From NCBI GenBank assembly GCA_022821845.1, contig JAJECT010000024.1:2393-66392 (forward strand): a DNA stretch of 64,000 bases, given 5' to 3'. The notes beneath the pieces are model-generated. The model had not been told where the DNA came from. It worked only from the letters and a program-made list of their open reading frames with translations, and ran no database searches. Of this stretch, positions 918 through 44,131 are shown in pieces. This DNA is from Rhodothermales bacterium. Its GTDB lineage: Bacteria; Bacteroidota; Rhodothermia; Rhodothermales; VXPQ01. A program made the translations under genes and the position numbers. Within the stretch, counting starts at the first letter, position 1. The number at the start of each line of letters is the position of its first letter.

Positions 918-1015
918 AACCCTTCGCCGTCACAGGCATGCCCGTTGCCCTTGAGGAACCAGAGGGAACGGCAACTTGTACAGTGCCTGCGCCAAACAAT
1001 GATCGAACGGCTCCC

Positions 1016-1102
1016 GGAGGGGTGGCAGAGCGGACGAATGCACCGGTCTTGAAAACCGGCGTACCCTCGCGGGTACCGGGGGTTCGAATCCCTCCCCCTC
1101 CG
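1016..1102 (+). tRNA. tRNA-Ser (anticodon UGA)
   Basis: Hand-folded cloverleaf. Acceptor stem GGAGGGG/CCCCTCC; anticodon stem CCGGT/ACCGG with loop CTTGAAA (anticodon TGA). Long variable arm GTACCCTCGCGGGTAC. T-arm GGGGG-TTCGAAT-CCCTC. Discriminator G; CCA is not encoded. Confidence 0.9.
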
Positions 1103-1278
1103 CGCTCCCTCCCCCGCCGATTTTCGGGAATGCAAATTTTTCTGCGGCGGAAAGCGCAACACCGGGGCTTTATTTTCGTAACGGCACGTTAGGCCCGACA
1201 TTTTGCCTTGCGCTTCCGCCCCGGAGCACAGAGACATTCCTGTACGGAACACCCCGAAATTCAGTCCAGACCGAAATC

Positions 1279-2670: not shown

Positions 2671-2728
2671 CTTCGCAACAAGGCGACGGGAACAAGAACT
2701 TTTTCAAAACCTTCCGCTATTCAGGAAC

Positions 2729-7978: not shown

Positions 7979-8201
7979 GGGGACGGCGCAGGAGCAAGCA
8001 TGGAAAGACGACGAACGAAAAATGCGCGAAAAGCGCCCACATCGTATACGTACGAGGGGGCGAAAAGATACGTTGCCCGCCTTGTTGCGCATCCGGGCGA
8101 AAAAATCCTTTACGGCGGGAACGGTTGTACTGTTTTGCCTTATATAATTCTGGCTCTCCCATTTCTGTAAAATATCATCGGCGCCGCGCAGGCATAATGC
8201 A

Positions 8202-29916: not shown

Positions 29917-30065
29917 GGGAGCAACCTGTTGCGCCGCGACAGGCGATTCTCCATGGTAAGGAATTTCGGGGTCAACGTTCCTGGGTTGCAGATTCGGTCG
30001 CGCATCCGTTCGGAAACGAGGCAAGCAGGCGCTCCGCATCGTCCGATTGTACAGTCCGACGCGAA

Positions 30066-30112
30066 CGAGGGGGCGCGCATCCTCGTTGATTTTGCGCCCC
30101 CTCGAATTTTTT
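30066..30112 (+). terminator. intrinsic-terminator-like hairpin with a competing upstream helix
   Basis: CGAGGGGGCGC (30066-30076) pairs with GCGCCCCCTCG (30094-30104) and is followed by AATTTTTT. The alternative helix AACGAGG (30064-30070) / CCTCGTT (30081-30087) uses the same 5' strand. Lies about 100 nt upstream of the 30216 ATG. Confidence 0.45.
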
Positions 30113-30215
30113 CGCAACATTTACCTTCTTATTCAATTTATTAATGTATCGGGTCGGGCAAAAGTACCCAAGCCGATGCGTCTCCAAGCCAATTTGTCTA
30201 ACCGGAGAGAACCTC

Positions 30216-31022
30216 ATGAAGCCCCGACCCGTCATCGCCTCCGCCATCGCAATCATCGTCCTGGGTTTCGGCGCATCCGCGAGCCAGGCCCAGACCGCCT
30301 CCGTTCCGGATCCGGTTCCGCCGAGGATGTTTTCCACGACTGGTTTCACAGGTTCTAACGCATACACGCTCCCGACCGGGAGGGGCTTCCTGGCCGCGGG
30401 ATACGCCGGCGCCGACTGGTGGGCGCAATTCTCCGACGACGAATTAACGTCCCTGACGTTTATCGTGCACGCCGCCTACGGCATTCAGGATTATTTGACC
30501 GTGGAGCTTGGTTCTGGCCACTGGAGATACGAGTATGAGTGGTATGATGACACTATCATATCGGAAGCCGAATCTTATCCGTACCTGGCGCCCAAGTTGC
30601 GCATATACAACAGGGGGCAATTGACCACCAGCATAAGAGGCATTATAATTCTTCCGACAGACGCCGCGGGTTTTTTGTACGGGGCTTCTTTGGGGCTCTC
30701 TTCGAAAATAAGGGAAGGGGTCAGTGGACACCTTTCTGTCGGATTCGCCGGGTATTCCGTAGACAGGTTCGATGAAGACAAGTATGAAACGGAACCAGTA
30801 CTGGCTTTTGGCGGGGATGTCCTGGCGTTCACGCCCGGCCAGGGCCAAATCAAGATATTCGGTGAATTTCGACGAGTCGTTTGGGTGAATGAAAGTTTTG
30901 CGATTCTCACTGCGGGCGCACGATTCCTGACCAACTCATTAGGAGCCGAGCTGGGATTTTCCAGGTGGCTTGAGGAGGACTTTGACGTCCGGCCTATTCT
31001 GAGCGTCTCATACCGGTTCTGA
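30216..31022 (+). CDS. putative outer-membrane beta-barrel protein
   Basis: Start refined to MKPRPVIASAIAIIVLGFGASASQAQ (signal peptide, GGAGAG upstream). Alternating beta-strand pattern. C-terminal ...SYRF aromatic terminus. Confidence 0.55.
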   Translation: MKPRPVIASAIAIIVLGFGASASQAQTASVPDPVPPRMFSTTGFTGSNAYTLPTGRGFLAAGYAGADWWAQFSDDELTSLTFIVHAAYGIQDYLTVELGSGHWRYEYEWYDDTIISEAESYPYLAPKLRIYNRGQLTTSIRGIIILPTDAAGFLYGASLGLSSKIREGVSGHLSVGFAGYSVDRFDEDKYETEPVLAFGGDVLAFTPGQGQIKIFGEFRRVVWVNESFAILTAGARFLTNSLGAELGFSRWLEEDFDVRPILSVSYRF

Positions 31023-31069
31023 ACCAGCGGGCCAAGGGGGTCGCCGAGAACAAACGTGCGAGCGGCCCG

Positions 31070-31720
31070 TCACCCCATGTACCGAACCACGGTATCGAAG
31101 GGCAGTTTTTCGATGTCGGGGGCTTCGGCGTCCTGGCGGGGATAGCCCGCGACGAGCAGCAGAAACGGGGTTTCGTTGCGGGGCCTTTCCAGGATTTCGT
31201 TCAGGAAGCGCATTGGGCTGGGCGTGTGCGTAAGGGTGGCGACGCCGGCGTGATGCAGCGCCGCGATCAGAAAGCCTGCGGCAATGCCCACCGATTCCGA
31301 CGCGTAGTAGTTCTTGATGCGCTTGCCGTCCGGGTCCAGCCCATAGCGTTCGAGAAAAATGGCGATAAGCGCCGGGGCTTCTTCAAGGAACGGTTTGTTT
31401 TCGTCCGTACCTAATGGGGCCAATGCGTCCAGCCATTCGCGGGTAGCCCGGCGGCGGTAGAATGCGCGCTCCTCGGCCTCCGCCGCTATGCGGATGCGGG
31501 CCTTGATCTCCGGGTCGCGCACCACCACGAAACGCCACGGCTGCCGGTTCGCCCCACTCGGCGCCGACGCAGCAACCCGCAACGCAGCGGCAATCACTTC
31601 GTCCGGGATGGGCCGGGAATCGAAATCCCGCACGGTGCGGCGGCGCGCCATGTCGTCCGCAAAGCGCTGCGCGCGCCGAACCGCTTCCTCTGGGGAATAG
31701 ACAACGGGCTGGAGTTTCAT
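31070..31720 (-). CDS. nitroreductase-family flavoprotein, iodotyrosine-deiodinase-like
   Basis: RRTVRDF...APSGANRQPWRFVVV...YYASESVGIAAGFLIAALHHAGVATLTHTP follows the IYD/BluB-subgroup pattern of the nitroreductase fold. Confidence 0.8.
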   Translation of the reverse strand: MKLQPVVYSPEEAVRRAQRFADDMARRRTVRDFDSRPIPDEVIAAALRVAASAPSGANRQPWRFVVVRDPEIKARIRIAAEAEERAFYRRRATREWLDALAPLGTDENKPFLEEAPALIAIFLERYGLDPDGKRIKNYYASESVGIAAGFLIAALHHAGVATLTHTPSPMRFLNEILERPRNETPFLLLVAGYPRQDAEAPDIEKLPFDTVVRYMG

Positions 31721-31729
31721 GCAGACTTA

Positions 31730-31765
31730 GTGGTCATATATTTATTAACGTGGCCAGAAAAATCT
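31730..31765 (+). repeat. phased GGTCA/GGCCA motif block R0
   Basis: GGTCA at 31732 and GGCCAGAAAAA at 31752, exactly 20 bp apart, between the nitroreductase start and the esterase stop. Confidence 0.4.
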
Positions 31766-31784
31766 GCCCATGAGGCCCATTGCC

Positions 31785-32699
31785 TTACGAGGCCTCTGTC
31801 CGGGATTCGTTCAGCAACCAGTCGATGAGACGCTCCGCATAGTTCGATTTGAGCCAGGGGCTGTGCGAACCCTCGTTGATCTTCCAGAGTTCGACCGTAA
31901 TGCCATCCCGGCAACCCTTGCGATAGCGAATGCGGTCGGTTTCCGCGCCCTCGTTGGCATGGTCGATATCGATGGGAGACAGTTCTTCGGCCATGGAAAG
32001 ATCGCATTCCGCGCGTTCGGCCCAGCGCGCTACCACATCCTCGGCGCCAGCGTACCCGACGCCGACGGGAATTCCTGCATAGCGAATGATGGCGTCTTCC
32101 GTGCCATGAACCTGCAATACGGCGACCGGCGGCGCGGACGCGCAACGGGTTGAATCCAGAAAGGAGGTCCCTGCAAGCGACGCGATCGCGCTCAAACCCG
32201 GAAGACCTTCGCAGGCAAGGCGATAGGACATGAAACCGCCGTTGGAATGTCCGACCGAAAATACGCGGCCCACCGAAATATACTTGCCCGCCTCGTCGAT
32301 CAGGCTGGAAAGATACGCAACGTCGTCCACCTCGAACTTGAAGAAGTCGCAACAGAAATCCGTGGCGTTCCAGAAGCGATTGTCGACGGAATCGCGGGTG
32401 CCGCCAGGCAGAATCAGCGCGAAATTATCGGAGTCCACCCGCCCGGAAAGATCCCAGTACGCATCATGACCCGCAGGATTGCCCGAATAGCCATGCAAAC
32501 TGATTACAACGGGAAGGGGACCCATGGCGTCGTATCCCATAGGAAGTTGCAGGCTGGCGGGACGGTCGCCGCCTATGATATACGCCGTTTGCCGCATGTC
32601 CGGCTCGGTCGGAAGTTCCTCCTGCATCGTCTCGCCGCAAGCAGTCAGCAGAAAAACCAGAAGAATACAGGCTAAAAGCGAACGGAGCATAGAGGGCAT
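31785..32699 (-). CDS. secreted alpha/beta-hydrolase esterase (PHB-depolymerase/LpqC-like lipoprotein)
   Basis: Lipobox LLTACGE. HG oxyanion motif VVISLHGYSG. Nucleophile elbow GHSNGG. Start moved from the TTG at 32714 to the ATG at 32699 (the ATG at 32690 is also possible). Confidence 0.75.
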   Translation of the reverse strand: MPSMLRSLLACILLVFLLTACGETMQEELPTEPDMRQTAYIIGGDRPASLQLPMGYDAMGPLPVVISLHGYSGNPAGHDAYWDLSGRVDSDNFALILPGGTRDSVDNRFWNATDFCCDFFKFEVDDVAYLSSLIDEAGKYISVGRVFSVGHSNGGFMSYRLACEGLPGLSAIASLAGTSFLDSTRCASAPPVAVLQVHGTEDAIIRYAGIPVGVGYAGAEDVVARWAERAECDLSMAEELSPIDIDHANEGAETDRIRYRKGCRDGITVELWKINEGSHSPWLKSNYAERLIDWLLNESRTEAS

Positions 32700-32909
32700 C
32701 GTGGCAAAAGACAAATTCGGCGGGGTCCGGGGCGCGTTTTCAGCAGAAGCAATCCGGTTGCGGGCGTTTGGGCCTTATAATACGGATAAGGGGTTTGCGC
32801 GCTGGAATTTTTTGGGGGACGTCAGGGTTTTGGGGCAAATAATCGGCCCCCCCATGACGGGGACGAGATTTTGTGGACAGATATGGGTTAAAATGACCGG
32901 GAACGTCGT

Positions 32910-32958
32910 TTGGCGGTCATCTGTGGCCAGCAAATCGACTTGACAGTCAAAAATGACG
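32910..32958 (+). repeat. phased GGCCA-type motif block R1
   Basis: TTGGCGGTCATCTGTGGCCAGCAAA (32910-32934) is 23/25 identical to 35473-35497. Cores sit at 32915, 32925 and 32945, spaced 10 and 20 bp. Confidence 0.55.
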
Positions 32959-32987
32959 TGTTGCACAGATAGCACTGAGGGTACTCA

Positions 32988-34103
32988 TCAGAAGGAGTCA
33001 ACGCCTTCAATGAGATGCAGCAGAGGACGAAACAGGAAAAAACGTTGCCGCCGCCCGCCACCCGCATCAAGCAACTCCAGCACCTCGCCTTCATGCAGTA
33101 CATCCAGAATACGTCTTGCCGTCCGCCCCGGAATCCCGGCGGTTTTGGCGAAACCCGTACTGCCGAAAACGGGCTGCCGGAAAATTGCATCGAGGGCGTG
33201 GGCGACATGAGGGGATCGGGTCATCGCTGCTACCCGACGCTTCATGTCCTCGTAGAGATCAAGCATCTCCCGCACTTTGCGGGCGTTTTCTTCGGCCTGC
33301 GCCTGCACCGCCTCCAGAAAAAACCGACACCAGCCGGTCCAGTCATCGTCGCGGGAAACCGAGAGCAGCCCGGCGAAATAGCATTCCCGTCGCGCCTCCA
33401 GATAAGCGCTGATACAAAACACAGGCTGCCTGATAAAACCGCGTTTCCATAAAAACAGGGGAATCAACATACGCCCTATGCGCCCGTTGCCGTCCAGAAA
33501 GGGGTGCAACGCCTCAAACTCGGCATGGAGAATGGCGAGTTGAACGAGGCGGTCAGGCGCATCTTCGCGCATGTAGCGTTCCCATTTGGACATGCCCCTG
33601 GAGAGTCTGTCGGCGCCAACAGGAACATAGGTGGCATTCTCTATCGTGGACCCGGGCCGACCGATCCAGTTAGGAATGCGCCGCAGTTCGCCGGGCATTT
33701 TGTTGCGACCGCGAACCCCGTCCAGCAACGCCCGATGTGCTTCGAACACAACCCGCATCGAGAGCGGCGCATCCTGCAACAGCGTTACGGCGTCGCGCAT
33801 AGCCATACGACAGTTAAGAATCTCTTCGATGTCGTTGCGGAATTCCGGCGAACCAACCTTCTGCCCCGCCTCGAACCCCAGGATTTCGCCAAGAGTAGCC
33901 CGTATCCCTTCGATTTTCGACGAGAGCACGGCCTCTTGCACGGTCAGCGGCGACAGTAACACATCGGGGTTCGGGATCGCCGCAAGCGTCTCGTCATAGC
34001 GCGCGACGGCAGCGGCAGCCGGCCCAAGCAATGGGATCAGTTGCGACCATTCCAGCCGGTCTTCCGGCGGAAACCGACCTGTACAATAATGCACTGGGGC
34101 CAT
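32988..34103 (-). CDS. Fic family protein (AMPylase-type Fido domain with intramolecular inhibitory helix and C-terminal wHTH)
   Basis: Fic motif HPFLDGNGRIGRML. N-terminal inhibitory motif SSKIEG (S/TxxxEG/N). Start refined to MAPVHYCTGRF at 34103. Confidence 0.9.
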   Translation of the reverse strand: MAPVHYCTGRFPPEDRLEWSQLIPLLGPAAAAVARYDETLAAIPNPDVLLSPLTVQEAVLSSKIEGIRATLGEILGFEAGQKVGSPEFRNDIEEILNCRMAMRDAVTLLQDAPLSMRVVFEAHRALLDGVRGRNKMPGELRRIPNWIGRPGSTIENATYVPVGADRLSRGMSKWERYMREDAPDRLVQLAILHAEFEALHPFLDGNGRIGRMLIPLFLWKRGFIRQPVFCISAYLEARRECYFAGLLSVSRDDDWTGWCRFFLEAVQAQAEENARKVREMLDLYEDMKRRVAAMTRSPHVAHALDAIFRQPVFGSTGFAKTAGIPGRTARRILDVLHEGEVLELLDAGGGRRQRFFLFRPLLHLIEGVDSF

Positions 34104-34200
34104 TGGTCTTTCTCCATGTTGGATAATGCCTGTTCCGTCCCGGTAAACAATGCGACAGAAGGGTTGCGAAACAGATTCGATACTTGACCGCAAACACACT

Positions 34201-34318
34201 TTCCGGCCAAATGTTTCCTAAAGTGGCCAAATAAATCATTTGATGATCATTTGTGGCCATCAAAAGCAGGTTGTCAGTCAAAAACAGGAGAAATCAGCCA
34301 TCTAATGGAGCGTTGGGC
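34201..34318 (+). repeat. phased GGCCA-type motif block R2
   Basis: GGCCA at 34205, 34225 and 34255; AGTCA at 34276; AGCCA at 34296 (spacings 20/30/21/20). Shares AAGTGGCCAAATAAAT and ATGGAGCGTTGGG with R3. Confidence 0.55.
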
Positions 34319-34470
34319 TTACTGTGGCGCACAGAGGCCGCCAGAAACAGAACGACAAAAGCAGGGCCCCGAACGAATCGCAGAAAGATTTTGGGATTGC
34401 ACGGGAACCGGACATCGACCGAAGGCATTCCTCTAACAAGGAAAGCACCAACGAACCCGGGAAAGAAGCC

Positions 34471-34605
34471 ATGTCGAAAAAAATCAATGCAACTGCGAGG
34501 CAGCAGCGTACGCTATCCTACAAAGGTCGAAACGGGCCGCCGCCACGATCCTCTGGGGCTACCAAGCCGCCGCCGCCACCACCGCCGCCGCCAAAAAAGA
34601 AATAA
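34471..34605 (+). CDS. candidate leader mini-ORF with a 9-proline run (MSKKINATARQQRTLSYKGRNGPPPRSSGATKPPPPPPPPPKKK*)
   Basis: ATG at 34471 preceded by GGGAAAGAAG. Ends 33 nt before the ATG of the AT-rich gene. (CCG)3(CCA)2(CCG)3CCA followed by AAAAAGAAATAA. No support beyond ORF and context. Confidence 0.3.
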   Translation: MSKKINATARQQRTLSYKGRNGPPPRSSGATKPPPPPPPPPKKK

Positions 34606-34638
34606 TGTCATTTCACCTTTTAAACCTAATCAAGAAAC

Positions 34639-35259
34639 ATGCCAAACATATCTGTTGAAATAATAGAAGTGCTCAAATTTTTATTACCAGGGTTTATAAC
34701 AACTACCGTTTTTTATTCATTTACTTCATTTCCAAAACCCAACACATTTGAGCAAATTGTATATGCCTTGATTTCGACTACTATCATTCAATCTATTATA
34801 TCATTAATATATTTAATAGAAATTGATCTTTTAAATGACGACAATTTAGAATTATTATTCTCAACCATTATCGCTATTTTATTAGGAATAATATCTTCGT
34901 ATTTGATGAATAATGATATTATACATCAAATTTTTCGTTCATCCAAATTAAAAATCACGAGAGAAAGCTCATATCCATCAGAATGGTATTTCGCTTTTGC
35001 GCGATATTCAAAATGTTATATCGTATTACATATGCATGGAGAAAGACGTCTCTATGGATGGGCTACAGAATGGCCAAGCAGGCCGGATAAAGGACATTTT
35101 CTCATTGAAGAGGGCGAATGGTTATCCTTACCAAAGGAAGCAAACGATAGTGCGAAAAACGATACAATCGAAAAAAATGCTATTCTCGTCCCCGTTGTGG
35201 AGGTCGAAATGGTAGAATTTCTTCCTCAAATTCCAGCAAAAGGTCAGCGGAACGATTGA
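34639..35259 (+). CDS. hypothetical membrane protein (3 N-terminal TM helices + about 100-aa soluble C-domain; DUF6338-like by memory)
   Basis: 206 aa. Very AT-rich coding sequence with AT-biased codons, unlike the host genes. TM segments FLLPGFITTTVFYSF, IVYALISTTIIQSIISLIYLI and LLFSTIIAILLGIISSYL. Confidence 0.65.
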   Translation: MPNISVEIIEVLKFLLPGFITTTVFYSFTSFPKPNTFEQIVYALISTTIIQSIISLIYLIEIDLLNDDNLELLFSTIIAILLGIISSYLMNNDIIHQIFRSSKLKITRESSYPSEWYFAFARYSKCYIVLHMHGERRLYGWATEWPSRPDKGHFLIEEGEWLSLPKEANDSAKNDTIEKNAILVPVVEVEMVEFLPQIPAKGQRND

Positions 35260-35472
35260 AGATGCCCCGTCTGTTATACATAAGGGCAAATACCGGATGG
35301 CGGGCGATATTGGCGATTTGCCCAGCGAGAGGAATTGACCGAATGCGAATCCCAAAAAACTGGAAACAGCCCTTGGCCGAAGGACGCTTGCTGATTTTGT
35401 CCTTTTTCGACGACGGCATCCATCGCCCTGCAGCGGCCATTGCGGCAGAGGGAAAGTAGCCAGAAAACGATC

Positions 35473-35550
35473 TTGGCGGTCACTTGTGGCCAGCAAACAG
35501 GCTTTACGGCCAAAAGCGGATCAAAGTGGCCAATAAATGGAGCGTTGGGG
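35473..35550 (+). repeat. phased GGCCA-type motif block R3
   Basis: GGCCA at 35488, 35508 and 35528, exactly 20 bp apart. The 5' 25 nt nearly match R1 and the 3' part matches R2. Confidence 0.55.
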
Positions 35551-35738
35551 TCACGAGCCATAGCCTTCAGGGCACGGCTTGCCGCCGAATTGACTTTATC
35601 GTCACAAAACCGTAATATTTCCCGTGATTTTCGCCAGAATCTTGCCATACGCATCGACCCGCCTCGCTGAATTAGCGCCAGAATCACGACATACGAATCC
35701 CTGAATCAGGCCCTGTCACCAGCAATTAAGCATAGCCC

Positions 35739-36875
35739 ATGTCCGAAAAACTCGCTTCAACGATCCAAGATATTGCCAAAGGCATCGCCGCCGGAAGATT
35801 CCAAAGCGAGGCGGCAATCAGCCAAGGCGTCGTGACGCGCATTCTGGCTACGCTGGGCTGGGATGTATACGACACGCAGGTCGTTACCCCGCAATTCCCC
35901 ATTCGTAATAGCGCAAGAAAAGTAGACTACGCACTCTGCCACCCACCAAGAGAAGCAGCTATTCTCATAGAAGTCAAGGATATAGGTAAAGCGGATGGGA
36001 AAGGCGAGACACAACTTTTCGAATACTGCTTTCACGAGGGCGTAAACATTGCAATTCTAACCGATGGGCGCCTTTGGAGCTTCTTTTATCCGGCGGGAGG
36101 GGGAAGCAATTACAAAGACAGGCTATTTGCCCAAATCGACCTGCTTATCCACGACCATCGTGCTGTTGCCAATACACTCACCCGATATCTGAATATGGAG
36201 GACATCAGGTCGCGTGCGACATGGGACCGGGCAAGACAGGACCACAAGCAAGCACAACTTGAGAGAAAGGCGGCTTCTCAATTTGTACCCGTTTGGAATA
36301 AACTCCTTTCGGAACCAGCTAAATCATCGCTATTGACCTTATTCCTGAAAGAAGTCGAAAAAGAAGCCCAAGTCAAACCAAATTCGGACCAAGCGGTGGA
36401 ATTTATCCGCAGCCAAGCCAAGGACGAGAGTGCAAGGCCGACAAGGCCACCGGGAAAATCAGGAGAAACCGGAAAACGGCGGCGAACACAACCCGTGACC
36501 CACTATTCGCCGCCGCCAACCGTTAGGAATACCTCAAGACAGGGATCATTCACATTCAGGGGACAGACGCAGGAGTTCCGCTCTGGCAACGAATTACTCG
36601 GCGCGCTATTCACTATGTTTGCCAAAATGGATTCTTATTTCTGTAGAACGTACTCAGAAACATACCTGGGCCGCTCGAAAAAGTACGTGGCCCAAACCCG
36701 GGAAGAGCTTCACCCGACAAATCCAAATCTGAGACAGGCGCTTCCTCTGCCTGGTGGGTGGTGGATATCCACTCATTGCAGCAATGCGCAGAAAATGCAA
36801 CGGATCCGGGAAGCCTGTGTTCTGCTTAACCTGGAATTTGGGCGGGATCTGGTGGTTAACCTTCCGAACGCGTAA
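35739..36875 (+). CDS. HsdR_N-like PD-(D/E)xK nuclease-fold protein with an uncharacterised C-terminal region
   Basis: The N-terminal 130 aa follow the type I restriction R-subunit N-terminal pattern (SEAAISQGVVTRILATLGWDV...RKVDYAL...AILIEVKD...ILTDGRLWSFF). The remaining about 250 aa are not recognised. Confidence 0.7.
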   Translation: MSEKLASTIQDIAKGIAAGRFQSEAAISQGVVTRILATLGWDVYDTQVVTPQFPIRNSARKVDYALCHPPREAAILIEVKDIGKADGKGETQLFEYCFHEGVNIAILTDGRLWSFFYPAGGGSNYKDRLFAQIDLLIHDHRAVANTLTRYLNMEDIRSRATWDRARQDHKQAQLERKAASQFVPVWNKLLSEPAKSSLLTLFLKEVEKEAQVKPNSDQAVEFIRSQAKDESARPTRPPGKSGETGKRRRTQPVTHYSPPPTVRNTSRQGSFTFRGQTQEFRSGNELLGALFTMFAKMDSYFCRTYSETYLGRSKKYVAQTREELHPTNPNLRQALPLPGGWWISTHCSNAQKMQRIREACVLLNLEFGRDLVVNLPNA

Positions 36876-36959
36876 AAGGGAATATAGTCGGAATTGCAGT
36901 AGCCACACCCTCGCGGCCCCCTCCCTTCCCCCAGCAAACCCGCAAGTACCCCTTGCAGG

Positions 36960-37562
36960 TTAATACTCCGCCGCCCCACCCGCCTCCGGGTAACGAAAGA
37001 CAGCATGATTCGCCGACGGTTCCCGACTGGCCCTTTCGCGTTCCGGCTGTCCCAGGTAGCGAGTCCGCAGCATCCGCATATGATGCTGCATGTGGCCGGC
37101 GGTGATCCAGGCCATGCTTCGGACGGTAAACTCGAAGCCGCTGGCGCGACCGCGGCGATTCCAGGCGGCGTCCGGCAAGCCCTTGAATAACAACAGCGTG
37201 GCATAGCGCGCCGCGTCCCACTCTTCGACCAGCGCGGCAAGGGTTCTGTCGTCCGCCCCCGACGCAGCAACATACTCGTTCTCGTCGAATCCCGGGTAAT
37301 GGGCGCGGTCGCCGCGGGCAAAAGCCATTGCCCGCATCGCAAACATCCGCTCGCTGTCCGTCAGGTGCCCGACGAGTTCGCGCACGGACCACTTGCCCGG
37401 CGCGTACCGATACTGCTCCATATCGGCGGGGACATCCGCCGCCAGACGGAGAAAATCATACCGCTGCTCCCGGAGCGTATCCAGTATGGAGCCATCCGGG
37501 GCGGCGGCTACGTACGGCCGATAGAATTCGCCGTATTCGTTGGGTTCAGGTCTGCGTTCCAT
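36960..37562 (-). CDS. DinB family protein (DinB_2-type four-helix bundle)
   Basis: Start refined to MERRPEPNEY. Metal-ligand His pattern: ELVGHLTDSERMF early and TAGHMQHHMRML late. Host-like GC. Starts 26 nt after the stop of the Toprim-like gene. Confidence 0.85.
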   Translation of the reverse strand: MERRPEPNEYGEFYRPYVAAAPDGSILDTLREQRYDFLRLAADVPADMEQYRYAPGKWSVRELVGHLTDSERMFAMRAMAFARGDRAHYPGFDENEYVAASGADDRTLAALVEEWDAARYATLLLFKGLPDAAWNRRGRASGFEFTVRSMAWITAGHMQHHMRMLRTRYLGQPERERASREPSANHAVFRYPEAGGAAEY

Positions 37563-37588
37563 GGGACTGGCTGATGTTGAACAAGGAA

Positions 37589-38206
37589 TTACGCCGCGCA
37601 AAGGGCCTGCAGGAAATCCCGGATCGGGCGAAAGGCCTCGTGATCCAGATTCCAATACTTTTTCTTTGCTGCGACACCAACGGAAACATGGGGTTCCGGC
37701 ATCGTCGCAAGATACGCATGGGCGCGCGCCTTCTCTGGATGACGAGTCTCAACGCCAACCTCGGATTTGACGCACCGGAAAAATTCGTCGATGCACGAAT
37801 CGACGGGCGTACCCGCAAAAGATTGCGACAACACGGTTTCCAGCATACCGGGACCGTCCTGGGGCAATATCAATACGCCCGTTTGGGGATTTCCTTCCGT
37901 AAAAAGACTGCTTTTCGACGGCGCCGGAAGATGGGCTTTACGCAATGCGGACTGGACGCTTTGGAATGCGCTGTCGGCAGATTTTTCGGCGTCCCGGACA
38001 ATTCCGATACGTCGAACCTGGCTAAAATTGGATGTCCCCGGAAAACCACGCAGGAATTTCGGCAAATCATGGACGCCTTCGTAGTTATGAATCTGCACCC
38101 CCGAAAGATCAAGGTGCTTCCGGAATGCTTCAAAAAAATTTCGCCCATCGTTGCCTTCGACAAGAAGCTGGATGGGATCGCGTATTTTTACAGACTTCCC
38201 CTCCAC
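37589..38206 (-). CDS. Toprim-like small protein (DUF3226/DUF4276/DUF4435-type), partner of the upstream ATPase
   Basis: 205 aa. GTG start 3 nt after the ATPase stop (TGAGCCGTG). Acidic motifs LLVEGNDGRNFF and IGIVRDAEKS match the Toprim E...DxD/E layout. Family assignment is by pattern memory only. Confidence 0.7.
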   Translation of the reverse strand: MEGKSVKIRDPIQLLVEGNDGRNFFEAFRKHLDLSGVQIHNYEGVHDLPKFLRGFPGTSNFSQVRRIGIVRDAEKSADSAFQSVQSALRKAHLPAPSKSSLFTEGNPQTGVLILPQDGPGMLETVLSQSFAGTPVDSCIDEFFRCVKSEVGVETRHPEKARAHAYLATMPEPHVSVGVAAKKKYWNLDHEAFRPIRDFLQALCAA

Positions 38207-38209
38207 GGC

Positions 38210-39256
38210 TCAGCGCACCTCCATACGATATTCTACGACACTGTCGATTTGGGAGCGGTCAAGGGTCACGCATCGGCTCGCGTCCTCGTCTATCTCCAGC
38301 CGATGGATTGAAAGATCGTCTCCTTCAATAGCGGAAGCCGCCGCTTGCAGGCATTCGTAGCTATGCGTGGTGGCGAACACCTGCGTACCCAGTTTTCTGG
38401 AGGTATCGTCAATCACGCGCCAAACATCCGCGAGCGCGGAATGGTGTATGCCGTTTTCGATTTCATCCACAAGCAAGACGCCGCCTTCGACCGCAGCCAT
38501 AGCCAACGCAAGCCTTACTATGCGCACCATGCCCCCTCCCATAACCGACAAAGGCACAAGTTCAGGAAGGCCAAGGTCTCCCCATATCATCGGGGAACCA
38601 CTTGACGAATTCTCTTCGATACTCTGGAGTCGGGGCTCGATCGCTTGCAATGCCCCGAGCACCAGATCGCCTTGCTTGCGTTGTCGCAAAACACCGAGGA
38701 GTCTGGCTGGTTCGCTGCTGGTGGTATCCATATCCAGATAGGGCGGCAGAATCTTCGCGCTGAACGGAATTTCTGTGTCCCTTGCCATACTTCCCGGTGT
38801 AAACCGGACATCCGTACCGTCTGGGAGGTGGAAACTCTTTCCAACTTCCTCGTTACCTCGCCAAAAAGTGCAGACCAGACACTGTTTTCCAGGAGTGCCT
38901 TCCTTGCGCTGTCCCTCGTCAGGATCCCCAAAATATATCTTCACCGATATCGCGCCAATTGCGGCATGATCGGCGGCGATTTCAATGGAAGCGCCGGTAT
39001 CCAATGCCGAAAACATCGGCTTCCACAGAATTCTCTGAACCGCTGCGGGCGACCGTGTATCTTCAGTAAGCCCCTGTAAATACCGCCCTATATTCACACC
39101 CGATAGATTCCCCCCGCTGGACAAGAGAAAAATGGCTTCCAGCAAACTGGTTTTGCCCGCATTGTTGCTGCCCGTAATCACATTGATACGGGTCGCAGGC
39201 GAGACTTCCAGTTCGCGAAACCGGCGGAAATTTGTGATTTTAACCCATTCCAGCAT
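38210..39256 (-). CDS. ABC-type AAA ATPase (AAA_15/AAA_21-like)
   Basis: Walker A ITGSNNAGKTSLLEAI, signature-like MGGGMVRIVRLALAMA, Walker B GVLLVDEIENGIHHSAL, H-loop VFATTHS. GC is lower than the flanks. Confidence 0.85.
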   Translation of the reverse strand: MLEWVKITNFRRFRELEVSPATRINVITGSNNAGKTSLLEAIFLLSSGGNLSGVNIGRYLQGLTEDTRSPAAVQRILWKPMFSALDTGASIEIAADHAAIGAISVKIYFGDPDEGQRKEGTPGKQCLVCTFWRGNEEVGKSFHLPDGTDVRFTPGSMARDTEIPFSAKILPPYLDMDTTSSEPARLLGVLRQRKQGDLVLGALQAIEPRLQSIEENSSSGSPMIWGDLGLPELVPLSVMGGGMVRIVRLALAMAAVEGGVLLVDEIENGIHHSALADVWRVIDDTSRKLGTQVFATTHSYECLQAAASAIEGDDLSIHRLEIDEDASRCVTLDRSQIDSVVEYRMEVR

Positions 39257-39332
39257 GGCTTTTTCGGATTTCCGTTGCTACGGCGGCAAGGGCGATAAAA
39301 AGGAAATTTGATACAGGAATACCCCCGCAACC

Positions 39333-39361
39333 AGAATACGCCCCCGCGCCACCCCTGTCAA
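39333..39361 (-). promoter_or_regulatory. sigma70-like promoter candidate for the ATPase/Toprim operon
   Basis: On the minus strand: TTGACA (39361-39356), a 17-nt spacer, then TATTCT (39338-39333), about 75 nt upstream of the ATG at 39256. Confidence 0.35.
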
Positions 39362-39385
39362 GCCCGCAAACGCCCTGCGGGTTCC

Positions 39386-40279
39386 CTACCACACTTCTCC
39401 CGGCGCGTACAAATCCTGCGCCCGCCCGATCAATTTTCCGTCCGGCTTCGTCACCCGCTTCTGAGCGCTTTCCTGATAGGGCAGGTGCTTCAGCACGTAG
39501 CGCATGCAGTTCAGGCGCGCCCGCTTCTTGTCGTCCGACTTGATCACCACCCAGGGAGCCGTTTTGGTGTCGGTGGCGGCGAACATCGTTTTCTTCGCCT
39601 CGGTGTACGCATCCCAAAGCGCAAGCGACTGAACGTCCACATCGCTGATTTTCCACTGCTTGAGCGGATTCCGGGCGCGCGACAGGAACCGCCGCAACTG
39701 TTCCTCGCGGCTCACCGAAAACCAGAACTTGAACAAGTGGAATCCGTCGTTGACCAGCATCTCTTCGAACGTCGCCGCATCCCGCAAAAAACGGAGCCGT
39801 TCGGCAGGCGTGCAGAACCCCATGACCGGCTCGACCACGGCCCGATTGTACCAGGAGCGATCAAAGAACACCACCTCTCCCCTCGACGGCAAACACCGTA
39901 CGTAGCGTTGAAAATACCATTGTCCGCGCTCCCGCTCGGACGGCGCAGGCAGCGCCACCACCAGTGCGCTACGCGGGTTCAGGTGCTCCATGAAGCGCTT
40001 GATCGTTCCGCCCTTGCCCGCAGCGTCCCGCCCTTCGAAAAGCAGAACCACCCGCTGCCCCGTCTCGTGCACCCATCGCTGCATCCGCAACAATTCGACC
40101 TGCAAATTCGCCTTCTGGCGCTCGTATTCGGCGCGTCCAAGTTTGGTCTTGTAGGGATACGAAGCGCTGATAATCTCTCGCTTGCCCGCCTCTTCGACCT
40201 TCCTGAGGAGCCCGGACGGCACCTTGGTGGTTGGCAAAAGAACCTCCAGGCCATCGCGTTCCATCGTGGCGACAGTCAT
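39386..40279 (-). CDS. ppk2: polyphosphate kinase 2 (single-domain)
   Basis: Start refined to MTVATMERDG. The track ORF continues upstream into the MITE copy. Walker A FEGRDAAGKGGTIK and the PPK2 lid motifs are present. Confidence 0.9.
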   Translation of the reverse strand: MTVATMERDGLEVLLPTTKVPSGLLRKVEEAGKREIISASYPYKTKLGRAEYERQKANLQVELLRMQRWVHETGQRVVLLFEGRDAAGKGGTIKRFMEHLNPRSALVVALPAPSERERGQWYFQRYVRCLPSRGEVVFFDRSWYNRAVVEPVMGFCTPAERLRFLRDAATFEEMLVNDGFHLFKFWFSVSREEQLRRFLSRARNPLKQWKISDVDVQSLALWDAYTEAKKTMFAATDTKTAPWVVIKSDDKKRARLNCMRYVLKHLPYQESAQKRVTKPDGKLIGRAQDLYAPGEVW

Positions 40280-40384
40280 GAGAAAACCCTTCCTTGTATC
40301 AGATTCGTCGAAATAGCGATCAATTGCTCCTCTCGCGATACGCTGAATATACGCGAAAAGCACGGCAATGCCATACGGCGCTGA

Positions 40385-40643
40385 AAGGATACTCTGATTA
40401 AGTCCACGAAGCTCAGAGGCTTGCGAGGGGTGCGCTGGCAAGGAATGACGAAGCAGCGTGGCAGGCCCCACGTAATGAGGAATGACGCAGCCAGCGTGCC
40501 CCTCGCAACCTCCCGAAGGGCGCGGCACGTCCCTGATGACAGGAATCCACAGCAATTTCTGCTAATTTCAAAGATACAAGCATGACGGCTTTTATGGGCA
40601 ATAGTGACGCGCTGAGCGAAGTGGTTTTAATCAGAGTATCCTT
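40385..40643 (-). mobile_element. MITE-like non-autonomous element, full copy 2 (inverted relative to copy 1)
   Basis: Same TIRs (AAGGATACTCTGATTAAG ... TTAATCAGAGTATCCTT). Collinear with the reverse complement of 11405..11666. Sits between the divergent ppk2 and xylanase starts. Confidence 0.6.
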
Positions 40644-40687
40644 AAGTCCGGCGGAACGAAAACGACGCGCAGGCAATAGGATAAACC

Positions 40688-41809
40688 ATGCCCCGCCCTG
40701 TCCCCGCATCCCCGCCCGACCCCATGCGCCCCGCACTCTCCCCCTCCGCCACGCTCCTGTGCCTCCTTGCACTCTGGATGTACGGATGCAGCGCCGATTC
40801 CGGCATGGACGAAACCGAACCAGACACGAACCGCGATTACCCGGCGCTCAAAACCCTCGCCGTACACCCGGTCGGCGTAGCCATTCAGGCAAGGCATTTG
40901 TCCGAAACGGAACGCACCGCCGTAATCAAAAAGGTCTTCAACAGCATCACGGCGGAGTGGGAAATGAAAATGAACCCCATATCCACCGGGCCGGGCGCGT
41001 ACAACTGGACCGGCGCCGATGCGCTGGTGGATTTCGCCGAGGAAAACGGCATGCAGGTGCACGGGCATACGCTCGTGTGGCATCAAACGGCGCCCTCCTG
41101 GCTGGAAAACTTCAGCGGAGACGACGAAGCCTTCGAGCAGGCCGTCAAGGAATACATTACGACCGTCATACAGCGCTACAAGGGACGCATCGTAAGCTGG
41201 GACGTGATCAACGAAGCATTCGACGATGCGGAGGGCGTCTTGCGCAACAGCGTGTTTCGACAGCGAATGGGCGACGATTACATTGCCCGACTGTTCCAGT
41301 ACGCCCGGGAAGCCGATCCGGACCTGCTGCTTTTCTACAACGATTACGGACTCACCTGGAGCCTGCCCAAGCGGAACGCCGTGATGCGCATGCTTGACGA
41401 TTTTCAGGAACGCGGCATTCCCATAGACGGCGTGGGCTTGCAAATGCACATGGCCTGGGACGGCCCGCCGCTCGAAGAAATTACGGCCACCATAAACGAA
41501 GTAAGGAAGCGCGGCCTCAAACTGCACCTTTCCGAACTGGACGTGCGCATCAACACGGACGGCAGCCTGCGATCCTGGAGCCAAGAGCGAGGCGCCATTC
41601 AGAAACAGCGCGTCAAGGAGGTGGTAGCCGCCTTCAACCGGATTCCCGAAGAACAGCGCTTCGCCATCACCCTGTGGGGACTGCGCGACCCGGACACCTG
41701 GCTCATCGATTTTTACGACCGCCCGGAATGGCCGCTCCTGTTCGATGCGCGACTGCTTCCCAAACCCGCCTACTACGGATTCGCGGAAGCGTTGCAGGAG
41801 GCGCAGTAA
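40688..41809 (+). CDS. endo-1,4-beta-xylanase, glycoside hydrolase family 10 (lipoprotein)
   Basis: Lipobox LWMYGCS. GH10 motifs GHTLVWH, WDVINEA (acid/base Glu) and LHLSELDV (nucleophile Glu). The alternative ATG at 40724 is possible. Confidence 0.9.
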   Translation: MPRPVPASPPDPMRPALSPSATLLCLLALWMYGCSADSGMDETEPDTNRDYPALKTLAVHPVGVAIQARHLSETERTAVIKKVFNSITAEWEMKMNPISTGPGAYNWTGADALVDFAEENGMQVHGHTLVWHQTAPSWLENFSGDDEAFEQAVKEYITTVIQRYKGRIVSWDVINEAFDDAEGVLRNSVFRQRMGDDYIARLFQYAREADPDLLLFYNDYGLTWSLPKRNAVMRMLDDFQERGIPIDGVGLQMHMAWDGPPLEEITATINEVRKRGLKLHLSELDVRINTDGSLRSWSQERGAIQKQRVKEVVAAFNRIPEEQRFAITLWGLRDPDTWLIDFYDRPEWPLLFDARLLPKPAYYGFAEALQEAQ

Positions 41810-41842
41810 AGCCTGCGCCCCCTGCTTTTCAACGCTTTTCGG

Positions 41843-44131
41843 CTATTTCACCAGCAACATGCGGCGGGTCTGCACGAAGGAGGCCCCCGCTTCGATACGG
41901 TACAAGTACACCCCGGACGTAAGCCCGGAAGCGTCGAACCGGACGGTATGCTCGCCCGCCGTCATCGACGCATCGTCCAGCAGCGCAGCCACTTCGCGGC
42001 CCAGCACATCGAATACGCGCAGCGTCACCTGCTCGGCCTGCGGCAACTGAAAACGAATGGTCGTAGCCGGATTGAACGGATTCGGGTAGTTCTGTTCGAG
42101 GGCATGCGTCGTCGGCAGTTCCGAATCCCCTTCCGACGAAGTGACGCCCCCGGGACCGACCATCCCCACGACTTGCCACTGGCTCGGCGTATTCCACCAA
42201 GTATTGTCCACCGTGGGATTGTTGCTCCAGGTGATCTGGTGTACGCGCGGCGGATCGTTCCCCTCCCCGTCTGCGTCGTTCAAGGTGATCGTAAACGGCA
42301 TGAAACGGACTTCGCCCTCGCCCGGGAACGGTTTGGGCGAATCCTCGGGTTTCTGCATAATGGTCGTATCGAAGAAACCCAGGATATTGTACCCTGTCGC
42401 CGTAGAGGCGTACGCCGCGCCGCCGGCCTTCGGCGTGTCGACATCGCTGAACGCGAATGTCCTTGCTTCCGCGTTGGCCTTGGCTCCGTGCGGAGACAGG
42501 CGGAGCTGGTAATCGGGGAAGTTTCCGCGCATAAAGTCTTCGTGCGGAGAGCCGCTCAGAATCGATCCGCCGGCGTCGCGCACATCGTAGCTGCCCCAGC
42601 CGATTTCAATGGAATCGTATTTCCAGGCTTCGTTCTCTCCAATGTTGTCTGGAGCGTAATCCGCCACGTCGTCGATGACCTCCGCGTACACCCATATGTT
42701 TGGAGACAGACCCAGATCGTCGTCCCCTGCGAAATACGCTACCCATACGGAGGCGGAAAGGTCGTCGTTGCTTGCAGGCAAGGTGACGCCGTTCTCGGAA
42801 AGCTGCGAATGCATGTCGTCAACCACGAACGGCATGGACTCCTCGGGAAAACCTTCCTTCGACACCATCCCCGCATTGACCGCATCGAACAACATTTCGT
42901 CCTGGGCAGACGTCAACGACAGGATCGCGGGCGAAACGGCAAGGTTCTGGTTGTCTACCGCCACCGCGCTGCCCGACACGTCCCGATTCTCCACGCCAAA
43001 CTGGCTCAGACTGGTTACCGCATAGTAAAGCGTCGAGCCTTCCACAGAAAACGAATGAGGAATCTCAATTTCGTGCCGCGCCTCGTAAGGAGCCTCGGAC
43101 ACCTTCGCGAGAAAATATACCTCGTCAGCAGTCACATCCGTGATCGGGGCTGCGCTCCAATACACATTGTACCCCCCGAAATCGGGATTGTGGGTCCAGG
43201 AAACCACATTGACGGGGCCGTCGCCGTCGCCCATTATATTGGACATGGCCGCAGGCTCTCCTTTCGCGTCAGAAAGATCCAAGCCCGCCGGGCCGATATA
43301 CACATCGTCCAGATAAATCGGGGCGCCCTCGTCACCAGCCCCTTGCCAGTCCCACTGAATGCCCAGGGCCCGGACGCTGTTCCATTCGAATTCGGTCCAC
43401 AGATCGGGCCGTTGCGCGGTATCCGGCCCCAACAGATCGAGCCCGATCGGGAATCCTCCATTGTTTACCCAGGAACCGGCGTATAGCCACTGGGATTCAT
43501 GTCCCGACAGGGAGCCGTCCTTCTTGCCGGCCTCGAGGTCCGCCCATGTGGCGGGCGGCAGTTGCACCGACACCTTGTGCCATTCCCCGTCGCGCAGGCT
43601 GTCCGCTATGGCCCAGCGCAGGCGGAACTGGTTATTTCCGCCGTCGCCGATATTCTCCCCGTAATCCTCGAGCTGGATCGCAAGGCGGTACTGCTGCACG
43701 ATGTTGCCGCTTGCGTCTGCCTGCGGATTGGCCGGGTCCACCATAATGCGAAAATGGAGGACGTTTCCGGCGTCCCGGTTGGCCGTCAGGTCGTGCGGGC
43801 TGCCTGTGCCTGTGGTGGTGGTATCGTCCGTGACAAAATAAAACCCGTGATACGAGTATTCTCCATGGTTGAGCTTCATCACCTTGGTGCCGCCGCCTTT
43901 CGGATCGTCGACGACCTCGCCGCCAAAGACCGCTTCAATATCGACATTCACCCCATCCACGAAAAAGATGAAGTGATCGTCATCTCTATCGCCCCGCGCC
44001 TGGGCCTGCACCTCGGCGGTATGCGCGACGATGCCCGCGCAAAGCAGAAGCGCGAAAGCGCCTCCGGCATAGCGGGTTAGGGCGTGGCGAAAGGAATGCG
44101 TAGCGCGGCTGATACGGTAACGCAAAGTCAT
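41843..44131 (-). CDS. secreted carbohydrate-binding-type protein with a T9SS C-terminal sorting domain
   Basis: Start refined to MTLRYRISRAT... with a signal peptide ending VQAQA. C-terminus EQNYPNPFNPATTIRFQLP...GVYLYRIEAG...MLLVK is a type-A T9SS CTD. Confidence 0.75.
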   Translation of the reverse strand: MTLRYRISRATHSFRHALTRYAGGAFALLLCAGIVAHTAEVQAQARGDRDDDHFIFFVDGVNVDIEAVFGGEVVDDPKGGGTKVMKLNHGEYSYHGFYFVTDDTTTTGTGSPHDLTANRDAGNVLHFRIMVDPANPQADASGNIVQQYRLAIQLEDYGENIGDGGNNQFRLRWAIADSLRDGEWHKVSVQLPPATWADLEAGKKDGSLSGHESQWLYAGSWVNNGGFPIGLDLLGPDTAQRPDLWTEFEWNSVRALGIQWDWQGAGDEGAPIYLDDVYIGPAGLDLSDAKGEPAAMSNIMGDGDGPVNVVSWTHNPDFGGYNVYWSAAPITDVTADEVYFLAKVSEAPYEARHEIEIPHSFSVEGSTLYYAVTSLSQFGVENRDVSGSAVAVDNQNLAVSPAILSLTSAQDEMLFDAVNAGMVSKEGFPEESMPFVVDDMHSQLSENGVTLPASNDDLSASVWVAYFAGDDDLGLSPNIWVYAEVIDDVADYAPDNIGENEAWKYDSIEIGWGSYDVRDAGGSILSGSPHEDFMRGNFPDYQLRLSPHGAKANAEARTFAFSDVDTPKAGGAAYASTATGYNILGFFDTTIMQKPEDSPKPFPGEGEVRFMPFTITLNDADGEGNDPPRVHQITWSNNPTVDNTWWNTPSQWQVVGMVGPGGVTSSEGDSELPTTHALEQNYPNPFNPATTIRFQLPQAEQVTLRVFDVLGREVAALLDDASMTAGEHTVRFDASGLTSGVYLYRIEAGASFVQTRRMLLVK

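Follow-up and report, generated by a model that had tools for sequence, protein, structure and literature searches.

What is the function of two small adjacent genes of a Rhodothermales bacterium, one encoding an ATP-binding cassette (ABC) ATPase of 348 amino acids (aa) and the other a 205-aa partner, for neither of which a specific family was found in NCBIfam? The genes, here called A and B, lie in a 64,000-nucleotide stretch of contig JAJECT010000024.1 (hereafter the window), and a preliminary description had put them forward as a candidate defence module of the ABC-ATPase plus Toprim kind. The profile and structure comparisons reported here favour that proposal. A and B probably form a self-contained, horizontally acquired defence module of the OLD-like class, in which a Toprim nuclease effector would be under the control of the ATPase; the defence role itself we infer from the sequences.

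Gene A and its DUF3226 partner

A and B are both encoded on the minus strand. Gene A (positions 38210 to 39256) starts with ATG and encodes the 348-aa ABC ATPase, similar to AbiLi and PDC-M38A, for which we propose the role of sensor and regulator. Gene B (37589 to 38206) starts with GTG and encodes a 205-aa DUF3226 protein (PDC-M38B), predicted to consist of an OLD-type Toprim domain and a helical domain and proposed to be the nuclease effector. The open reading frame coordinates bear out the two-gene operon of the preliminary description, with the same protein lengths and the same gap of 3 nucleotides (nt) between the genes (junction TGA-gcc-GTG).

The B sequence matches Pfam DUF3226 (E = 2.3e-29, residues 13 to 203), one of the partner types that had been suspected. 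Its only PADLOC matches are to PDC-M38B, namely PDLC04624 (E = 1.6e-12, residues 7 to 200 against positions 9 to 215 of a 220-position profile) and PDLC04623 (E = 1.1e-6). The AlphaFold (AF2) model of B, with a predicted local distance difference test score (pLDDT) of 92.9 and a predicted template modelling score (pTM) of 0.88, exhibits a β-α-β-α-β-α-β core followed by a helical domain. The five best PDB matches of this model in Foldseek are all Toprim-containing C-terminal regions of class 2 OLD nucleases from Xanthomonas and Burkholderia (E = 1.8e-4 to 1.8e-3, probability about 1.0, template modelling (TM) score 0.36 to 0.43, 11 to 14% identity). Beyond these five the matches are unrelated folds with E > 0.01, and a Foldseek search of viral structures (BFVD) returned nothing at E <= 0.001.

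A family profile search with B over 1.84 billion cluster representatives yielded 4,407 relatives, 916 of them below E = 1e-30 and nearly all about 200 aa long. The conservation and profile counts given below for B refer to 123 diverse representatives of this family, all of which match DUF3226 in Pfam and PDC-M38B in PADLOC. Pfam OLD-like_TOPRIM is matched by 58 of the 123 (best E = 2.1e-6), OLD-like_TOPRIM_1 by 11 and DUF4435 by 10; the PADLOC profiles mad4, AriB, AbiLii, HEC-01B and GajA Toprim are matched by 18, 12, 11, 7 and 6, respectively. The Toprim-like character ascribed to B in the preliminary description from its acidic motifs is thus supported by the model, which matches OLD Toprim regions, and by the relatives matching OLD-like_TOPRIM, DUF4435, mad4, AriB and AbiLii.

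The first acidic motif, LLVEGNDGRNFF (38132 to 38167, minus strand; residues 14 to 25), holds E17 at the end of strand β1 (residues 12 to 16 in the model). E17 is conserved in 122 of the 123 sequences, G18 in all of them and D20 in 92. The second motif is D72-A73-E74 (37985 to 37993, minus strand), a D-x-[D/E] sequence within IGIVRDAEKS (residues 67 to 76) at the end of strand β3 (66 to 73 in the model). D72 is invariant, while at position 74 E occurs in 61 sequences, D in 54 and N in 7 (E or D in 115/123); the window's D-A-E is the D-x-E variant of D-x-D. A glutamate after β1 and a D-x-D after β3 are the Toprim positions described for OLD, RNase M5, DUF4276 and RloB. Further residues stand out between 37730 and 37840 (minus strand): E123 after β4 (122/123), and C138, C145 and K159 (all 123/123). 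G120 is invariant as well in the 123-member alignment. The putative acidic metal site of B (E17, D72, E74 and E123) thereby appears intact, together with the invariant K159. Since OLD nucleases are the top structural matches, 58 relatives match OLD-like_TOPRIM and the acidic residues are invariant or nearly so, we predict that B represents a distinct branch of the OLD-type Toprim nucleases.

A natural head-to-tail B-B fusion of 443 aa (P0241), each copy of which is complete and carries the VEGxD and RDA motifs, suggests that B works as a dimer. The profile built from the 123 sequences marginally reaches PDB entry 2P62 (E = 0.0015), the Pyrococcus horikoshii "hypothetical protein" PH0156 and the sole solved structure reached by sequence; PDB searches with the B sequence and with a 38-sequence family profile returned nothing meaningful. 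PH0156 shares the VEGxxD and VRDxDE motifs with B, but it is absent from the top 50 Foldseek matches of the B model. As a separate observation, the two invariant cysteines C138 and C145 (37772 to 37795, minus strand) lie on one predicted helix at a distance of seven residues. They could have a metal or redox role; the Toprim literature consulted offers no explanation.

The A sequence matches Pfam AAA_21 (E = 2.8e-21) and AAA_15 (E = 3.5e-18), in agreement with its earlier designation as an ABC-type ATPase. Its top PADLOC profile is AbiLi (PDLC02336, E = 4.6e-48), aligned from residue 1 to 348 with positions 1 to 340 of the 340-position profile. The second is PDC-M38A (PDLC04611, E = 4.6e-46), and four more PDC-M38A profiles match with E = 5.8e-38 to 2.5e-23. 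Matches to AriA (E = 3e-25, partial coverage of A), GajA (E = 5e-18), HEC-01A and mad3 are also observed. All 40 relatives of A that were compared match AbiLi and receive the same PADLOC assignments as the window's A.

The Walker A sequence GSNNAGKTS (39146 to 39172, minus strand) corresponds to residues 29 to 37 of A, with G29, N31, G34 and K35 invariant among the 40 homologues. The C-terminal ATPase motifs (38360 to 38542, minus strand) comprise the signature-like MGGGM (239 to 243) at the start of MGGGMVRIVRLA (239 to 250), the Walker B LLVDE (261 to 265) within LLVDEIENGIH (261 to 271), a D-loop, and the H-loop ATTHS (295 to 299); G240, D264, E265, T297, H298 and S299 are invariant. All the motifs that the preliminary description had quoted in A and B were therefore found at defined positions, on invariant columns of both families, the one correction being that the catalytic Walker A lysine is K35 and not K36. 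The AF2 model of A, built on the 40 homologues, has a pLDDT of 79.6 and no coiled coil. In Foldseek it matches Rad50, GajA, the Thermus OLD protein (6P74), PtuA and SMC (structural maintenance of chromosomes) heads about equally well (E = 3e-13 to 1e-10, TM score 0.44 to 0.57). From these motifs and this model, A is predicted to be a complete ABC ATPase, with every motif intact and lacking a coiled coil. Its small size is the norm of its family and no sign of truncation, because the homologues are uniformly about 345 to 355 aa long. As judged by structure and profiles B appears nearer to the OLD Toprim, and as judged by profiles A appears nearer to AbiLi and AriA.

The pair is flanked by native-looking genes, identified from their Pfam matches as PPK2 (E = 8.7e-100) and DinB_2 (E = 2e-20), as previously described. 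The G+C content of the pair (0.54) is at the 7.5th percentile among segments of the same size. At third codon positions (GC3) it is 0.57 for A and 0.56 for B, versus 0.73 for PPK2, 0.74 for DinB and 0.77 for the neighbouring GH10 gene; the lower G+C that had been noticed relative to both flanks is thus real, and this contrast in composition points to a foreign origin of the pair by horizontal acquisition. The operon was also said to have its own promoter, and a promoter-like element was indeed found at 39333 to 39361 on the minus strand: TTGACA (39361 to 39356), a 17-nt spacer and TATTCT (39338 to 39333), matching 10 of 12 consensus positions in a consensus scan. Both hexamers and their spacing are kept in two Rhodothermales relatives (L001 and L002), and a third (L003) exhibits a single substitution (TATCCT). 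The rest of the DNA between PPK2 and A has diverged to 47% mean column identity, and the conservation of the element within such a diverged spacer argues that it is more than a chance match to the consensus. The end of A contains a Shine-Dalgarno-like GGAGG (38218 to 38222, minus strand), 11 nt upstream of the start codon of B, which suggests that translational coupling of the two genes is plausible. In L001, a 42-nt unit is repeated 3.5 times in tandem (8681 to 8826) in the DNA that separates PPK2 from the conserved promoter-like element of gene A; this repeat is not present in the window, L002 or L003.

The central insert of gene A

The conservation of A is interrupted by a hypervariable insert (38717 to 38986, minus strand; about residues 91 to 180), which is beta-rich and which we propose to be the trigger-recognition module. 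In the AF2 model, residues 91 to 170 form strands with low pLDDT and no long helices. Mean pairwise identity within the family is 21 to 25% over residues 106 to 180, with insertions and deletions, versus 60 to 91% in the ATPase core. Among 7,140 pairs of homologues, 54 combine a core identity of at least 85% with an insert identity of 21 to 45%. Across phyla, B is better conserved (about 55% identity) than A (about 40%).

The contrast is sharpest between the window and the related locus L016, where B is 92 to 93% and DinB 96.5% identical to the window's proteins but A only 74% overall. At the nucleotide level the two A genes are 96 to 100% identical at their ends (residues 1 to 45 and about 256 to 348) and 38 to 60% identical over residues 100 to 195 or so. 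For residues 91 to 180 the amino acid identity is 38%, the nucleotide identity 57% and the synonymous divergence (dS) 0.97, versus amino acid identities of 89 to 93% in A outside the insert and dS values of 0.03 for A residues 2 to 45, 0.32 for A residues 181 to 348, 0.09 for B and 0.10 for DinB. The simplest reading of this mosaic is that the central segment was replaced through recombination with a divergent allele. This reading is favoured because dS climbs along with the non-synonymous divergence, a pattern that in-situ positive selection alone would fit less well. None of the 7,140 pairs exhibits an insert much more alike than its core, which would be proof of the transfer of a cassette into a divergent backbone; the exchange is accordingly deduced solely from the mosaic seen in the nucleotide sequence and from the local rise in dS. 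At close range, with L014 and L016 as the loci compared, the ratio of non-synonymous to synonymous divergence is fairly high for B, 0.53 to 0.63, versus 0.21 for A overall (compared with locus L014) and 0.18 for DinB (compared with L016), small counts that may be noise.

A fast-changing insert beside a conserved engine and effector is the pattern proposed for trigger recognition in ABC-ATPase immune sensors (Payne et al.; Burman et al.). The hypervariable, mosaic insert of A is what would be expected of a sensor module, and it seems hard to reconcile with a housekeeping role. A bolder and tentative possibility, suggested by analogy with the target-recognition domains of HsdS in type I restriction, is that the segment of about 90 residues is an exchangeable specificity cassette recombined between alleles, each variant sensing another phage trigger and unleashing the same DUF3226 nuclease. 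If so, PDC-M38 would be the smallest modular, re-targetable sensor-effector pair of the OLD-like class, and would offer a direct way to examine how ABC-ATPase immune sensors select their triggers. A sharply bounded insert in an otherwise conserved ATPase points to the seat of specificity and makes the question of the trigger directly testable.

Linkage and genomic context

Gene A lies directly upstream of gene B in all 16 related loci inspected, which span at least four phyla and include Rhodothermales, a gammaproteobacterium, a Vicinamibacterales acidobacterium and a Dehalococcoidia bacterium. The junction between the genes varies from a 14-nt overlap to a 3-nt gap, and no further gene consistently accompanies the pair. 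No A-B fusion is present among the best 150 cluster representatives, where the only fusion is one B-B tandem. A and B are thus obligatorily linked and tightly coupled, always occurring together. Their family is large (some 4,400 clusters at 50% identity, most of them from uncultured bacteria) and compact at 348 plus 205 aa.

About half of the examined loci adjoin defence or mobile genes. In three of them (L007, L010 and L011) the pair follows a type I restriction-modification (RM) locus with an embedded Fic gene, among genes for HicAB, SLFN/AlbA_2, an AAA_21-DUF4435 fusion, HIRAN, AAA_16/TPR and NYN. The pair of locus L012 abuts genes for a large methylase, a TIR protein, MNT/HepT and a ResIII helicase, and that of L009 is in conjugative DNA, with MazE. 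The neighbours in L004, L005, L006, L008 and L013 are metabolic or unknown genes only. The link to defence islands is thus genuine yet incomplete: the proximity of homologous pairs to known defence genes, which the preliminary description had suggested checking, holds for about half of the loci and fails in six contexts without a defence gene, and the Rhodothermales site is fixed.

Two of these loci contain additional genes of related type. In L011, a 547-aa AAA_21-DUF4435 fusion, a merged PARIS-like gene (7027 to 8670, plus strand), is directly upstream of A-B, two OLD-like ATPase/Toprim systems thus standing in tandem within a type I RM/Fic locus. In L012, another AAA_15/AAA_21 ATPase, of 469 aa, whose 192-aa partner has no Pfam match (850 to 2837, minus strand), is located 6 kb from A-B; the two may be a further split ATPase-effector system.

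Among the Rhodothermales, L001, L002 and L003 share the gene order PPK2-A-B-DinB with the window, and L016 keeps A-B-DinB. The DinB start is most likely the ATG at 37562, 26 nt past the stop of B. Between the window and L001-L003, A and B are 66 to 76% identical, versus 82 to 91% for PPK2, GH10, G6PD and a nitroreductase. Because these relatives keep the four genes at the same site yet differ beyond DinB, the pair appears to be an old, vertically kept acquisition beside a variable hotspot. DinB and PPK2 were considered as functional partners and rejected, since they are found with the pair only in Rhodothermales. A tRNA scan found none near the A-B locus to mark an integration site, and an Rfam scan of 30000 to 42000 returned no RNA family.

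Past DinB, a compositionally odd segment of the window carries a gene for a 378-aa protein, a DUF6338 gene and a SoFic gene. The full-length SoFic gene (32988 to 34199, minus strand; PADLOC E = 2.3e-101, Pfam Fic_N and Fic), a defence gene, is 3.4 kb from B; L002 carries it (85% identity) and L001 does not. The DUF6338 gene (34639 to 35259, plus strand), absent from L001, L002 and L003, has a G+C content of 0.33 and a GC3 of 0.27 in a genome of 0.60 G+C, the strongest signal of foreign composition in the region. In the AT-rich spacer upstream of it, 34530 to 34600 (plus strand) contains a CCG/GCC-rich simple run, ccgccgccgccaccaccgccgccgcc, followed by aaaaaagaaa, which reads as poly-proline in one frame. 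The 378-aa protein (35739 to 36875, plus strand; GC3 0.53) has a weak, sub-threshold match to HSDR_N, which resembles the N-terminal nuclease of restriction enzymes. Its gene adjoins DinB in L001 and L003, is missing from L002, and may belong to the hotspot as a further accessory or defence gene.

The same segment contains three copies (32890 to 32953, 34190 to 34322 and 35453 to 35554) of a 65- to 130-nt repeat with the core AAAGTGGCCA..TTGTGGCCAKCAAA..TTGACAGTCAAAAA and palindromic TGGCCA sites. The repeat is confined to the variable segment and brackets the SoFic and DUF6338 genes like cassette boundaries; its 14-mer occurs 3 times versus 0.71 expected. In L001, which lacks both genes, two copies spaced 110 nt apart occupy the empty site that corresponds (12924 to 13046), and L016 has one copy (6403 to 6415). 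The repeat looks like the boundary of a cassette hotspot, and could be a recombination site or an operator.

Proposed mechanism and comparison with known systems

We propose that A is the sensor, which would bind B and hold it in check. Its variable insert would recognise a phage- or plasmid-derived trigger, altering the ATPase cycle, and ATP binding or hydrolysis by A would release or activate B. The effector, probably dimeric, would then cut nucleic acid, namely tRNA or another RNA if it acts like PARIS, or DNA if it acts like OLD and Gabija, and this cleavage would stop the infection or the infected cell.

Several observations weigh against a defence module of this kind. The Rhodothermales inherit the pair at a fixed site, where it stands in tandem with PPK2 and DinB and on their strand. 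No known defence gene is near it in L001, L004, L005, L006, L008 and L013, and L007, L010 and L011 represent a single related hotspot rather than three independent observations. Homologues of B were absent from 72,556 PLSDB plasmids and 50,697 INPHARED phage records searched by tblastn. The structural match of B to OLD is modest in terms of TM score, and the window's own B has no direct match to a Pfam Toprim profile at E <= 1. Literature searches for "PDC-M38" and "DUF3226" found no papers and no experiment. Moreover HEC-01, also a two-gene combination of ABC ATPase and Toprim protein, did not protect when tested by Payne et al., although another study observed protection by a HEC-01 representative.

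The nearest rival differs in mechanism rather than in purpose: A and B would form a stable complex, as in OLD or Gabija, that nicks or cleaves invading DNA, with ATP binding gating the nuclease, no free toxic effector and no abortive infection. It can draw on the class 2 OLD DNA-nuclease regions as best structural matches of B, on the 58 relatives matching OLD-like_TOPRIM versus 10 to 12 matching DUF4435 or AriB, and on an A model that fits GajA and the Thermus OLD protein as well as anything. OLD and GajA are, however, fused proteins, whereas the genes are split here and the best 150 representatives include no A-B fusion; the pair has no GajB-like helicase beside it; the A sequence is closer to AbiLi and AriA than to GajA; and a hypervariable insert suits trigger recognition more than a generic sensing of DNA. 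We consider this arrangement rather unlikely. An addiction module, with B as toxin and A as antitoxin stabilising the chromosomal segment or mobile element that carries it and playing no anti-phage role, would account for the tight operon of foreign composition and for those relatives found in conjugative or transposase-bearing DNA or beside the toxin-antitoxin genes HicAB, MazE and PhdYeFM; PARIS itself formally behaves as a type II toxin-antitoxin system according to the literature. Such a module is nevertheless improbable, given that the plasmid collection holds no B homologue, that the recombining insert of A implies an external, changing ligand, and that the cassette recurs embedded in RM, BREX or DISARM loci.

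RecF and RecR are likewise an ABC ATPase without coiled coil, of about 350 aa, and a Toprim protein of about 200 aa. The similar sizes and the same pair of domains could make A and B an analogous housekeeping DNA-repair pair, conserved with PPK2 and DinB in Rhodothermales. The N-terminus of A does match the recF model (E = 2.9e-13), and the gene order with PPK2 and DinB is kept in L001-L003 and, without PPK2, in L016. But the match covers only residues 5 to 49 of A and scores 49.7 bits against a curated cut-off of 172, and B, for which NCBIfam gives no match, fits neither a RecR nor a Toprim_4 profile; on these two grounds the RecF/RecR identity was rejected and a repair role is given very low weight. 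PPK2 and DinB, furthermore, are not beside the pair in other phyla, the GC3 is foreign, A and B have diverged more from L001-L003 than PPK2, GH10, G6PD and the nitroreductase have, and a hypervariable insert would be unexpected in a repair ATPase. This explanation is highly improbable.

A trigger-controlled defence module of the OLD-like class is therefore the reading that we retain. Pairs of ABC ATPase and Toprim proteins (OLD, Gabija, PARIS, AbiL, HEC-01 and MADS) are a major theme of bacterial immunity, in which trigger recognition is known in detail only for PARIS. The Toprim partners that published work lists for AAA_15/21 ATPases are TOPRIM_Old, DUF4435, RloB and DUF4276, DUF3226 not being among them. 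Should a defence role be confirmed, DUF3226 would have an assigned function and PDC-M38 would pass from a candidate to a validated system; otherwise, two formerly "hypothetical" genes have received a clean annotation.

The closest catalogued counterpart is the PADLOC candidate system PDC-M38, one of 145 untested "guilt-by-embedding" candidates drawn from BREX, DISARM and type I RM loci, with three RefSeq cassettes of 84, 66 and 57 instances (Payne et al. 2024, bioRxiv 10.1101/2024.01.29.577857). Both window proteins match its profiles, the genes are adjacent and co-oriented in the same order and on the same strand, and all the sampled relatives match too. The pair is thus a predicted member of PDC-M38, as judged from the profile matches and the adjacency read from the sequence. 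It differs in that the window copy is outside any RM, BREX or DISARM locus and its PDC-M38B match is distant, and in the breadth of the family, about 4,400 metagenomic clusters (50% identity) here versus few RefSeq cassettes. The expectation of an uncharacterised minimal variant belonging to no known family holds as to the compact size and the DUF3226 partner, but not as to novelty, for the pair is already catalogued and its ATPase is AbiLi-like.

Among the characterised systems, AbiL of Lactococcus likewise has an ABC ATPase gene followed by a Toprim/OLD-type gene, and A matches AbiLi end to end. The window's B, however, matches neither AbiLii (at E <= 1) nor RloB, only 11 of its 123 relatives match AbiLii, and weakly, and the partner is a DUF3226 protein; AbiL in the strict sense was rejected on account of this partner. 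PARIS shares the split between an ABC ATPase sensor and a Toprim effector: AriA senses a phage protein and releases the dimerising nuclease AriB. AriA, of about 55 kDa, assembles into a hexamer through its coiled-coil inserts, and AriB is a DUF4435 protein of 35 kDa. A matches AriA profiles, but at 348 and 205 aa the window's proteins are different in size, A has no coiled coil, and B has no direct match to DUF4435 or AriB (10 to 12 of the 123 relatives match, weakly). PARIS was rejected on these differences.

The OLD proteins of classes 1 and 2 (P2 Old; Burkholderia and Xanthomonas OLD, PDB 6NK8 and 6NJV) provide the best structural matches of B with their Toprim-plus-helical C-terminal regions, and share with the pair an acidic site of the glutamate and D-x-D type and an ABC head. 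They are single polypeptides, whereas two genes are present here, and the similarity of B to them is 11 to 14% identity at a TM score of about 0.4; a classical OLD protein was rejected because the genes are split. Gabija, HEC-01 and MADS also combine an AAA_15/21 ABC ATPase with a Toprim, A matching GajA, HEC-01A and mad3 and some B relatives GajA, HEC-01B and mad4. GajA is fused and needs the GajB helicase, whereas the genes here are separate and have PPK2 and DinB as neighbours; Gabija was rejected for want of a fusion and of an adjacent UvrD-like GajB helicase. The Toprim family of HEC-01B is a different one, and Mad3 and Mad4 are components of a methylation-associated system of several genes, with a DUF4276 partner. 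In architecture the A-B pair will not surprise the specialist: it would work like the OLD-like class of ABC ATPase plus Toprim systems and belongs to its superfamily, and it is already catalogued and has an AbiLi-like ATPase. What is new here is the hypervariable insert and the mosaic structure of gene A.

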